Source: Escherichia phage XJA18-XJ-2024
DNA length: 50,572 bases
Direction: 5' to 3' (one strand)
Sequence record: PV584117.1
Each line of letters begins with the position of its first letter. Within the stretch, counting starts at the first letter, position 1. A program made the translations under genes and the position numbers. The notes under the pieces are model-generated. The model was not told where the DNA came from, searched no databases, and worked only from the letters and a program-made list of their open reading frames with translations. Positions 996 through 3,379 of this stretch are shown one piece after another.

Positions 996-1015
996 TTTAG
1001 CAATTCGTGCTATTT
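996..1015 (+). promoter_or_regulatory. 20-bp box TTTAGCAATTCGTGCTATTT, reverse orientation, abutting tail fiber RBS
   Basis: member of repeated box family; 18 bp upstream of ATG 1034. Confidence 0.5.
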
Positions 1016-1033
1016 ATTTAAGGAGTTTATATT

Positions 1034-3379
1034 ATGGCTTTATACAGACGCGGTACAGCATCAATGGATGCAGACGGAACGGTTCACGGAACCGATACAA
1101 AATGGAAAGACCAGCTTGCTCTTATTCGCGTAGGTGCAACTATCGTGTTCCTTGAGCAGCCAATTAAGCTGGCTGTGATTAGCGATATCGTTAGCGACAC
1201 AGAATTAAAGGCTATCTCTACCGACGGGCAAACTGCCGCAAACGGAAAGTATGTGATCTTACTTAACGATTCACTGACTGTTAACGGGTTGGCTCAAAAC
1301 GTTGCTGAGACGCTTAGATACTATCAAAGCAAAGAGACTGAGATCGCATCGGCGCTTGATATAATCAATCAGCTTGATATGGACAACCTGGCTCACATCG
1401 TTGAAGAAATCAAAGCTAACAAATCAGCCGCAGAAGCTGCGCAGAATCAAGCCGAACTTGCGCGAGATGCAGCCGCCGCAAACCGTGATGCAGCAAGTCA
1501 ATTTGCAACATCGGCAGAGCAAAGCAAGAACGCAGCAAAGACCAGTGAGACTAACGCAAGCAACGCTAAAGCAGCGGCTGAGGAAGCTAAAAAACAAGCT
1601 CAAGTTTACAGATACGAAGCAGAAGGATTTAGAGACGAAGCCGAGCAATTCGCTAATAGTGCTGATGCGTCAAAAAAGGTTGATAAAGCAGGGACCACTA
1701 TTAACGCACCAACAAGCGTTGCTGATATGCTAAAAAGGTTGCGCGATACGGTTAAGGGTGGATTCTGGCGAATTGATGACGTAAGTCAGTTCCCATCTGG
1801 GCAAATGGCCCCGTTCAGATACGGGCCTGGTGTGTGCGGCGGTGCTGGTGACACATTTTTTGCTTTTAACGTTGACTACCAGACCTCTCGCGTGAAGGTT
1901 TTCTCAGGAAACAATAACGCTATCAACGGATCGTCTGGAAATGTTAGCGCTATTGAACTGGCTAAGCTTGGTTCAAATGGTGACGTAGCGATCGCGGACG
2001 GAGGGACCGGAGCATCTAACGACCAGGGAGCGAGAAAAAACCTTCAGGCAATGCATGAGCGACAGGCAACTTTGGTTGGTGAAAACCTAAACGACCTGAA
2101 AGGTGATAAAGCTGGATTTTACTTTCAGTCCATGTCGGCGAACGCCACTACAGAGAGGAACTACCCGATCGCTGAGGCTGGTTGCTTGCTTGTTCAAAGG
2201 ACTGGTGCGAACGTCGCTACAAGCTGCGTTCAGACTTATACATCATACAATTCAGGCCGTCGATTTATGCGCTGGATTAGTAATGGAGCTACTGGTGTAT
2301 GGTCGGAATGGTACGAACTGTATAATGCAGGGTCGTCGCCGGAATACAATGCATACGTAAGAGCTAAAAGCGGAGCACGCATTGTTGAAATGTTCGTTGG
2401 CGGTTCCGATATGGGTGTTCGCAACCGAACGTCTCAGAAGGTTTTACAGCTTCGTGATAATGGCGAGCTTGCATATGACAACAAGCTGATCGCGTATAAC
2501 GGGCTTACAGCCAGTGGCTCTTTTGCTATGACCGTGCCCAGCATTAAAGTTACGACAGCCAATGGTGGATTTCGTATCGACGGAACAGCGTCAACAAACA
2601 ACCAACCACTACACGTAACAGGCTACAACTCCGCAGGAACTCGTCTTTGGTTTTTAGGGAAGGACACCGGAACGAACGCCTTGTTCCTGAACGATATAAC
2701 GTCTTCTAAGGTTGAATTGATAACTGACGGCGTCGTACTTGGAACTAAGAATTTCGCGGGAAAAGCATATGTGCAGGCGGCGAGCTTGGAGATCAGCAGG
2801 CCGAGCGGGAAGTATTTCAAAATGCTGAACGACGGCAACTCATCACACCCAGCAACATTCAAATTGTGGGGTAACGGTTCAGATCGTCAGTCTGTTATTG
2901 AGTGGGGTTTCGACAACGGCCCTGGATGGGTGTTTTACGCTCAGTATAACAGCAACGGATCACGACAGATGAACGTTAACGGAACGGTAAACTGCACGAC
3001 GGTAAACCAGTCATCTGACCGAGAGTTGAAGGATAATATTAAGCCGATCGAGAATGCGCGAGCGGGTCTTTCTAAAATTGGTGGTTACACCTATACACTG
3101 AAGAAAGACGGTATGCCTTACGCCGGGGTGATTGCTCAGGAAGTGATGGAAGTAGTGCCTGAAGCGGTTAGTACGTTCGAAGACCACGAATACCTTGCTG
3201 GGCCAACGAAAGACGGAGAGGAGTTAATAGGGCGTCAGAGGTTCTTTCAGGTTGATTATGGAGCCATTGCGGCTTATGCGGTGCAGGTGTGTAAAGAGCA
3301 GGAGGATGAAATTATTTCCTTAAGGAATGACGTTGAGGAATTGAAGTTGATTGTAAAATCGTTGCTTGATAGCAAGTAA
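1034..3379 (+). CDS. tail fiber protein with C-terminal intramolecular chaperone (peptidase S74-like) domain
   Basis: 781 aa; Ala-rich coiled-coil N-terminal region; C-terminal SDRELKDNIKPIENA...GVIAQEVMEVVPEAV motif characteristic of self-cleaving tail fiber/endosialidase chaperone domains. Confidence 0.8.
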   Translation: MALYRRGTASMDADGTVHGTDTKWKDQLALIRVGATIVFLEQPIKLAVISDIVSDTELKAISTDGQTAANGKYVILLNDSLTVNGLAQNVAETLRYYQSKETEIASALDIINQLDMDNLAHIVEEIKANKSAAEAAQNQAELARDAAAANRDAASQFATSAEQSKNAAKTSETNASNAKAAAEEAKKQAQVYRYEAEGFRDEAEQFANSADASKKVDKAGTTINAPTSVADMLKRLRDTVKGGFWRIDDVSQFPSGQMAPFRYGPGVCGGAGDTFFAFNVDYQTSRVKVFSGNNNAINGSSGNVSAIELAKLGSNGDVAIADGGTGASNDQGARKNLQAMHERQATLVGENLNDLKGDKAGFYFQSMSANATTERNYPIAEAGCLLVQRTGANVATSCVQTYTSYNSGRRFMRWISNGATGVWSEWYELYNAGSSPEYNAYVRAKSGARIVEMFVGGSDMGVRNRTSQKVLQLRDNGELAYDNKLIAYNGLTASGSFAMTVPSIKVTTANGGFRIDGTASTNNQPLHVTGYNSAGTRLWFLGKDTGTNALFLNDITSSKVELITDGVVLGTKNFAGKAYVQAASLEISRPSGKYFKMLNDGNSSHPATFKLWGNGSDRQSVIEWGFDNGPGWVFYAQYNSNGSRQMNVNGTVNCTTVNQSSDRELKDNIKPIENARAGLSKIGGYTYTLKKDGMPYAGVIAQEVMEVVPEAVSTFEDHEYLAGPTKDGEELIGRQRFFQVDYGAIAAYAVQVCKEQEDEIISLRNDVEELKLIVKSLLDSK

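Follow-up and report, generated by a model that had tools for sequence, protein, structure and literature searches.

Escherichia phage XJA18-XJ-2024 (sequence record PV584117.1) carries 18 exact copies of a short dyad, here called the box, which stands at a constant distance upstream of the -10 hexamers of its early promoters and also lies in the control regions of late genes and of a regulator gene. The whole stretch analyzed (the window, 50,572 bp) is a complete, circularly permuted T1-like genome (Drexlerviridae, Tunavirus). We hold it evenly balanced whether the box is a promoter and operator element acting at the DNA level, where one factor, probably the helix-turn-helix (HTH) protein encoded at 50057-50509, would activate transcription from position -42 and repress it from other positions. 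Positions, spacings and conservation were read directly from the DNA; from these we infer which protein binds, whether it activates or represses, and where transcription starts, every start being a prediction placed 7 nt past the -10.

T1 belongs to the seven classical T phages, and many hundreds of genomes of its family, the Drexlerviridae, have been sequenced. We know of no regulatory scheme by which the T1 family, with no polymerase or sigma factor of its own, times its gene expression.

The box and the early promoters

The box reads TAGCAC-N4-TGYTAAA and contains a 15-bp dyad core, TAGCA-N5-TGCTA, whose right half tolerates C or T. The half-sites lie one helical turn apart (~10 bp, centre to centre), and the flanks are A-rich. 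Exact matches to TAGCACNNNNTGYTA numbered 18 in the window against 0.04 expected, and none of 100 shuffles reached 18; with two mismatches allowed, 30 matches were found against 2.5 expected. With one more base between the halves (TAGCAC-N5-TGYTAAA), no box copy was recovered, and only two two-mismatch matches at chance level were obtained. Fourteen of the exact copies are co-oriented with their own genes and four are reversed.

The early regions with co-oriented box promoters span 29356-47533 and follow one order: box, 20 nt, -10, hairpin, CATCGAAACGA and ribosome binding site (RBS). Co-oriented copies lie on the minus strand at 29356, 30729, 31249, 32796, 33522, 34080, 35135, 35875, 46494 and 47517, and on the plus strand at 37797, 38214, 39566, 40081, 40581 and 42743. 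A -10-like hexamer was present exactly 20 nt past the box in 15 of 18 co-oriented copies of the window (16 exact and two with one mismatch). TATAGT, TATAAT, TATTAT and CATAAT are among these hexamers, and TGn stands before about half of them. The relatives compared came from IMG/VR (80 HTH-gene loci and 80 major-tail-gene loci, with HTH identities down to 52%), and all site counts are of distinct sequences or contexts. TAnnnT, with a background frequency of 1.6%, occurred at the 20-nt distance in 136 of the 270 distinct box contexts of the relatives, and in 15 and 2 at the neighbouring offsets; when CAnnnT was also allowed, the count at 20 nt rose to 180 of 270.

At 17 nt upstream of the -10 stands AAAACN, hence the box promoters have no -35. 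Canonical -35/-10 matches were not enriched in the 20-kb early region (41 vs. 38.6 in shuffles). With a constant 20 nt between box and -10, and an inferred start 7 nt after the -10, the dyad would cover -49 to -35, with its centre near -42. A site centred near -41.5/-42, with a recognisable -10 and a weak or absent -35, is the arrangement of class II-type activation, and a box-bound factor at -42 would recruit sigma70 polymerase to ~15 early promoters devoid of a -35. As a -42 element at a fixed distance from the -10, the box would supply the missing early promoters of the family.

In the early cassettes the -10 is enclosed or adjoined by a covarying hairpin and followed by CATCGAAACGA, a conserved start region, and the RBS stands in the context ACCAATCAGGAG; the same cassettes are found unchanged in Klebsiella phage Sin4 and Vibrio phage Vc1. 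The -10 lies in the hairpin loop or against the 3' arm (e.g., 35135-35070 on the minus strand, 38214-38290 and 42743-42810 on the plus strand), the arms covary between cassettes, and a T-rich tail follows in some. Since transcripts from the box promoter would not include the 5' arm, the hairpin could halt read-through and spare its own promoter. The ACCAATCAGGAG context also stands upstream of many start codons (e.g., 17051-17040, minus strand), with nine copies in one of the relatives' loci (L179).

The box is not new. It is the same element as the 21-nt direct repeat aaATAGCACnnnTTGnTAAAA, reported at 21 places in the 2024 re-annotation of phage TLS, where similar repeats were mentioned for T1, Rtp and Rogue1 (PMC11447400). 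The TLS repeats lie along the direction of transcription, ~76 nt upstream of start codons, and their function was left open, with a stoperator, an enhancer or an UP element suggested; only three conventional intergenic sigma70 promoters were found in that genome (PMC11447400). The family consensus that we derived from the relatives is aaATAGCACtttTTGtTAAAAc.

Reversed copies at the regulator and late genes

An earlier note on this DNA had drawn attention to four reversed copies next to late and regulator genes. All four are present: upstream of the tail-fibre gene (996-1015, TTTAGCAATTCGTGCTATTT), the G tail chaperone (17055-17074, AATAGCACTTCTTGTTAAAA), the major capsid gene (20817-20836, TAATAGCACTTTTTGTTAAA) and the HTH gene (50025-50044, TTTTTAGCAAAAAGTGCTAC). 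Comparison with the strands of the adjacent open reading frames (1034-3379, plus; 16717-17034, minus; 19805-20764, minus; 50057-50509, plus) confirmed that each copy points against its neighbour gene. Each matches the TLS consensus aaATAGCACnnnTTGnTAAAA on its own strand. They face opposite to the neighbouring gene, whose start codon is 12-52 nt away, and are atypically placed members of the repeat. The distance of 18-20 bp to the start codon given in the note was correct for the tail fibre (18 nt) and the G chaperone (20 nt), but the HTH gene starts 12 nt from its box. The note had also proposed an operator occluding the RBS-proximal region. As judged from the sequence an operator is plausible; the box, however, is placed relative to sigma70 promoters, not to the RBS. 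The capsid, tail-fibre and HTH promoters have the canonical sigma70 form, with TTGNNN, a spacer of 16-18 nt and TAnnnT.

The copy at 50025-50044 (minus strand) is both the -42 element of the helicase promoter and the sequence abutting the HTH RBS. Divergent sharing of one box by the helicase and HTH genes, as earlier suggested, was found throughout the family: in all 59 distinct sequences TAnnnT stood downstream of the box on the helicase strand, and in all 59 the reversed box abutted the HTH RBS. Read on the helicase strand, TATTAT, TATGAT or TAGTAT follows 19-20 nt past the box (21-22 nt past the dyad core), and box and hexamer are therefore an ordinary box promoter for the helicase operon. 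In the window the helicase -10, TATTAT (50001-50006, minus strand; predicted start ~49994), overlaps the HTH -10, TATAAT (50000-50005), which belongs to a sigma70 promoter called by the promoter scan, TTGAAT-17-TATAAT (49977-50005, plus strand; predicted start ~50012). The predicted divergent starts are 18 bp apart, and the two -10s occupy the same 7 bp on opposite strands. Box binding would activate the leftward helicase promoter, which overlaps the rightward HTH sigma70 promoter. The box core is at +18 to +32 of the HTH leader, counted from the predicted start, and this position would give negative autoregulation as well as promoter competition.

At the G tail chaperone the reversed box (plus strand; core 17057-17071) lies in the leader, at about +24 to +38 of the predicted sense transcript. 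An antisense extended -10, TGATACGAT (17091-17099, plus strand), stands exactly 20 nt past it, and transcription from its predicted start (~17106) would read into the 3'-end of the major tail gene. The sense promoter is part of a late terminator-promoter unit (17101-17136, minus strand): a hairpin (17136-17119) with the -35-like TTGCGC in its loop, a T-run and the -10 TAAAAT (17106-17101). Its predicted start (~17094) is 12 bp from the antisense one. The major-tail terminator with the TTGCGC loop, the T-run and a following sense -10 (ctgTAnAAT) were observed in all lineages. The box was present in Tunavirus, Badaguanvirus and several IMG/VR lineages with ~60-70% major-tail-protein identity; it was absent, with a leader ~35 nt shorter, from TLS-like phages, Webervirus and the most divergent lineages (~55% tail-protein identity).

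In 32 of the 33 distinct box-bearing sequences, TAnnnT was found exactly 20 nt from the box on the antisense strand, mostly with TGn. These 32 keep T-12, A-11 and T-7, and vary in the middle bases and in the spacer (TACGAT, TAGGAT, TAGAGT, TAGCAT, TAAGAT, TACAGT and others), which, at the level of sequence, is how a conserved -10 varies. The unvarying T at -7 coincides with -5 of the sense promoter, a position for which we know of no constraint. In the box-less lineages the antisense hexamer was not found at the corresponding place, and a position-free search of their ~130-nt intergenic region returned TGnTAnnnT in 8 of 41. Box and antisense -10 are thus present together or absent together and make up one unit, a predicted promoter directed away from G and antisense to the major tail gene, overlapping the late promoter in a back-to-back arrangement. 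Interference between this box-dependent backward promoter and the post-terminator late sigma70 promoter would follow.

In a few Tunavirus (loci L100, L103 and L104) the G-site box is mutated to GTGCCA, and one of the GTGCCA genomes encodes an HTH protein 100% identical to that of the window. In another locus (L160, ~4890-5000; ~50% tail-protein identity) a full forward cassette and an extra small gene are inserted between the major tail gene and G, an insertion that shows cassette mobility at this junction.

The reversed capsid box (plus strand) makes up the spacer and the TGnTA of a near-consensus, scan-called sigma70 promoter, TTGACG-16-TATTAT with TG (20816-20843, minus strand; 10/12 matches; predicted start ~20809), so that the box core covers -25 to -11 and a bound protein would occlude polymerase. 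The reversed box was present at this site in 61 of 68 distinct family sequences. TTGNNN (TTGACG, TTGCAC, TTGACC or TTGAAC) lay exactly 16 nt ahead of it in all 61, and in 59 the GTGCTA end of the box provided the TGn and the first TA of a TAnnnT hexamer (TATTAT, TATCAT, TATATT or TATTCT). Use of the reversed box as a sense extended -10 holds at the capsid only; at the remaining three sites a -35 is lacking and the hexamers (TATTTA, TATTAA and TACAGG) are poor. An antisense promoter at the capsid was rejected: the -7 T is missing in the window, an antisense -10 was found in only 2 of the 61 relatives, and the antisense 'TA' derives from the stop codon of the upstream gene.

The terminator that the note had placed downstream of the capsid box was confirmed by the terminator scan, which called a hairpin with a 10-pair stem and a T-run (20814-20789, minus strand), followed by TTTATTAACT. 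The hairpin starts 2-3 nt past the capsid -10, and a comparable one is present in most lineages. Since the predicted start (20809) falls in the 5' arm, transcripts of the capsid promoter itself would lack the full stem, and read-through from upstream would meet the terminator. A role as read-through terminator or as 5' stabiliser may be proposed for it.

Upstream of the tail-fibre gene the reversed box (minus strand; dyad core 998-1012) occupies +2 to +16 relative to the predicted start (~997) of a scan-called sigma70 promoter, TTGCAA-17-(TGa)TAAAAT (962-990, plus strand), a position that would be of the repressor type. A reversed box follows the primase gene in many genera, and a sense -10 (TAAAAT, TATAAT or TACAAT) lay 6-12 nt upstream of its core in 35 of 37 distinct contexts. 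Antisense TAnnnT at 20 nt was found in none of these 37 contexts, and an antisense promoter was rejected here also, the -7 T being missing in the window and the hexamer unconserved. Of the antisense transcription that the note had envisaged, only that at the G chaperone is plausible.

A forward box at terS (27525-27541, minus strand) lies between the -10 (CAATAT) and the RBS, at about +2 to +18. At this gene and at the tail fibre a bound factor (~+2 to +18) would block polymerase. The terS box is kept in T1 and IME347 and absent in damhaus and Sin4. At J (tail tip) a forward half-box, AAATAGCACAAAAAGGTAAA (10867-10886, minus strand), is found 15 nt past TATAAT, its right half being also the RBS; it is kept in T1, IME347 and damhaus and occurs in three genera. 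Reverse orientation is not a trait of the late-gene copies, because the forward boxes of terS and J, which the note does not mention, likewise adjoin the RBS and lie just downstream of late promoters. In late genes the box may face either way, and it is always inside or immediately past a terminator-promoter unit.

On the minus strand, such units make up the late operon (27584-27545, terS; ~10935-10895, J; ~13110-13075, L; 17136-17101, G). Each has a hairpin with TTGCGC or TTCGGC in its loop at -35 distance, a T-run and then 'ctgTAnAAT', and each late terminator would be followed by re-initiation. T1 'transcriptons' were mentioned in similar terms (PMC11447400).

The candidate binding protein and competing explanations

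The candidate box-binding protein (50057-50509, plus strand; 150 aa; phrog_2856) is the homologue of T1 ST23. It showed weak Pfam matches to P22_Cro/YdaS and weak sequence matches to Cro proteins. Its AlphaFold model was confident for residues 36-140 (mean pLDDT 81.5), and the helical core superposed on Xfaso 1 and N15 Cro (3bd1, 6on0/2hin) with target-normalised TM-scores of 0.70-0.73. The protein comprises a basic, disordered N-terminal stretch of 35 residues, an all-alpha Cro fold and a conserved C-terminal domain; the fold search of the model returned Cro-type domains only, and the C-terminal domain was unmatched. A Cro-type dimer binds dyads with half-sites one turn apart. As in Cro/cI-type operators, the dyad half-sites are ~10 bp apart, and an HTH protein with a box in its control region is encoded in the same genome. 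The HTH gene is a core gene (824 phage records), and in the 59 distinct sequences the box is always in its leader. HTH identity to the protein of the window is 54% in Sin4 and ~45% in Vc1, and the box is unchanged in both. The box is probably bound by a dimer of the Cro-fold protein 50057-50509, although the link is circumstantial.

Several observations weigh against this assignment and against the dual role proposed for the box. The predicted recognition helix varies between genera (SNQTVQGW, SIQVVQQW, SQQTVNQW or TNQNVNEW) and the box does not, so that a host factor or RNA polymerase fits equally well. With an invariant box, the search for correlated change between helix and box gave no signal either way, and what ties the protein to the box is co-conservation and the autoregulatory position only. 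Roughly half the box promoters possess an extended -10, and these might need no activator. Repression of late promoters would need a late relief, which is not evident from the sequence. The G-site copy appears dispensable, since it is missing in several genera and reads GTGCCA in some Tunavirus. Finally, the relatives behind the site counts are phylogenetically non-independent.

The invariance of the box in phages of Escherichia, Klebsiella, Salmonella and Citrobacter and in one named for Vibrio, together with the varying HTH helix, would suit a box read by host machinery alone, as an UP-like element or enhancer contacted by the alpha subunits or by a conserved enterobacterial factor; the late copies would then be cassette leftovers or strengtheners. 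The A-rich flanks and the UP/enhancer proposal of the TLS paper (PMC11447400) agree with this. The invariant positions, however, contain G and C (TAGCAC, TTG), unlike the UP consensus, and the capsid and tail-fibre copies, in or downstream of the core promoter and thus at no UP site, are kept nonetheless (61/68; 37 distinct sequences). To our knowledge, no E. coli regulator has a TAGCA-N5-TGCTA site, and we regard host machinery as a rather unlikely sole reader of the box. It also appears unlikely that the box is a pure repressor site or 'stoperator' that shuts early promoters and blocks elongation, the early promoters running on their -10 or extended -10. The TLS authors suggested a stoperator (PMC11447400), the boxes are intergenic and lie along transcription, TGn is carried by about half of the box promoters, and the capsid and tail-fibre positions are classical for repressors. 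Such a site has no need of a fixed distance to the -10, yet the offset is sharply fixed; the half of the box promoters that lack both -35 and TGn would be very weak unaided, and a single repressor of early and late genes makes no coherent programme. Very unlikely as a full account, though compatible with a promoter/operator role rather than an alternative to it, is the proposal that boxes are boundaries of mobile promoter cassettes for recombination of early 'morons' (cf. T4-type PeSL), the reversed copies having been inserted backwards. A repeated cassette with conserved flanks (box, hairpin, CATCGAAACGA and RBS context) around unrelated small genes, the ~35-nt box-plus-spacer indel at the G site and the forward cassette with its extra gene in L160 speak for it; it explains the spread of the box, but not the -10 spacing or the family-wide box in the capsid spacer.

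The dyad could also act in RNA, as a hairpin as small as lambda boxB (stem of 5 bp, loop of 5 nt); binding of the arginine-rich HTH N-terminus to it would serve antitermination, processing or translation control beside the RBS. TGCTA variants do fold (-3.7 kcal/mol, z = -4), a C/T change in the right half would amount to G-U wobble pairing on the forward strand, hairpins or terminators follow the boxes, and the HTH N-terminus is basic and disordered. In contrast, reversed TAACA copies (capsid and G) gave 0 kcal/mol and forward TGTTA copies -1.3 kcal/mol (z = -0.7), no better than shuffles, and a boxB-like hairpin of the lambda nut type was rejected as the common function. The capsid box, predicted upstream of the start, would not be transcribed from the capsid promoter. 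Because the reversed TAACA copies are unfolded and the -10, unlike the hairpins with their varying positions, stands at a constant distance from the box, we place box function at the DNA level and consider action in RNA extremely unlikely. The same degree of doubt attaches to the view that every reversed box drives an antisense transcript (~1000, 17060 and 20830) lowering expression of the adjacent late gene. All four window copies have 'TA' in the hexamer at 20 nt (TATAGC, TACGAT, TATGAC and TATTAT), the G-site element is well conserved, and the CII-dependent paQ of lambda makes antisense RNA; but in the window neither the tail-fibre nor the capsid site has the essential -7 T, and the relatives have the hexamer in 0/37 and 2/61, respectively.

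Two known elements were also rejected. The sigma54 promoter (TGGCAC-N5-TTGCW) differs in that TAGCAC has AG for GG, its TTGC is two bases too close, and a sigma70-type -10 stands at 20 nt. The T4 MotA box (TGCTTtA) is centred at -30 and lies ~12 nt from the -10; the box described here has its centre at ~-42 and leaves 20 nt to the -10.

The promoter/operator reading can be extended to the claim that one Cro-fold protein and a 15-bp dyad constitute the whole temporal programme of T1-family phages, which we consider improbable. In such a programme the protein would be made at once from its canonical sigma70 promoter and would turn on ~15-20 early promoters without a -35 from -42. It would also hold down terS, capsid, G, J, the tail fibre and its own gene, and fire the backward promoter into the tail operon. 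Since the protein would limit its own synthesis and each replicated genome would add ~25 boxes, replication would titrate it, and the early-to-late flip would need no late activator.

Known systems and further copies

The box arrangements are new instances of well-known regulatory designs, and no new kind of system. One such design is that of lambda cI at OR2 between PRM and PR, with a dyad at ~-42, a weak -35, an HTH dimer, divergent repression and autoregulation; the candidate protein here has the related all-alpha Cro fold. In contrast to lambda, the phage is virulent, its ~25 operators are dispersed and single rather than tripartite, and the regulator's own gene is the side proposed to be repressed. 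Mor and C of phage Mu are small phage dimers that bind a dyad at ~-43.5 of middle and late promoters with a -10 and no -35, and work with the host sigma70 polymerase; neither sequence nor fold kinship to them was detected, and Mor/C are not known as operators inside other promoters. In class II promoters of CRP and FNR the site is also centred at -41.5 and overlaps the -35 region, but there a host factor binds a 22-bp site, and here presumably a phage factor binds a 15-bp dyad.

Bidirectional promoters with overlapping -10s (Warman et al., 2021) resemble in sequence geometry the HTH/helicase pair, with its overlapping -10s and predicted starts 18 bp apart, and the G site, where the -10s are adjacent and the predicted starts 12 bp apart. 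Unlike those promoters, one arm here has a -35/-10 and the other a box/-10, so that one factor could regulate the arms oppositely. The stoperators of mycobacteriophage L5 (Brown et al., 1997, cited in PMC11447400) share the many dispersed intergenic copies, mostly along transcription, but are asymmetric 13-mers with no fixed relation to a -10, whereas the box is a dyad at a fixed promoter position. For the G site the analogue is lambda paQ, an activator-dependent backward promoter in the late region; CII binds TTGC-N6-TTGC direct repeats that straddle the -35 there, and the G antisense RNA is only predicted.

DR7 (negative strand), DR8 and DR11, the TLS homologues of the capsid, J and HTH/helicase sites, respectively, appear uncommented in Supplementary Table S1 of the TLS paper, which does not give the fixed 20-nt distance to the -10, the missing -35, the reversed copies as a group or the overlap with the capsid promoter (PMC11447400). 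In the literature we found no description of the constant position of the box in promoters, of its place within the capsid promoter across the family, of the conserved backward promoter at G or of the box shared by HTH and helicase. The reversed and leader-embedded copies outline a testable circuit, comprising autoregulation of the regulator, back-to-back promoter competition and operator control of the capsid and tail-fibre promoters, and the reading of the box proposed here is useful for the annotation and engineering of T1-like phages.

The first 8 kb of the window match phage T1 and its relatives at ~89-91%. The gene order is as in T1: primase, tail fibre, recombination genes and the minus-strand tail and head operon, and onward two early small-gene regions, the helicase operon and the HTH 'transcriptional regulator'. 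A degenerate forward box (50494-50510, plus strand) overlaps the HTH stop codon and is followed, after 20 nt, by TAACAT in the loop of the HTH terminator (to ~50560). TLS-like phages have an exact box at this place, and the copy is probably the primase promoter. On the minus strand, a two-mismatch forward box, TAGCACTAATAGCGAAA (46162-46178), is followed after 20 nt by TAGCAT; it lies in or at the edge of an open reading frame, is kept in T1 (40309) and may be an internal promoter. Three other two-mismatch matches were taken as chance, that at 13117-13133 being kept neither in T1 nor in other genera and those at 2373 and 15530 lying inside genes.

The region 36430-37100 is non-coding and AT-rich with TATATA repeats, and contains the early region's three best sigma70 promoter matches in the leftward direction (36811-36783, 36743-36714 and 36510-36482). 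An orphan exact box (36828-36844, plus strand) has no -10 at 20 nt and corresponds approximately to 105-119 of the T1 map, near the left map end, the start of the terminal repeat.

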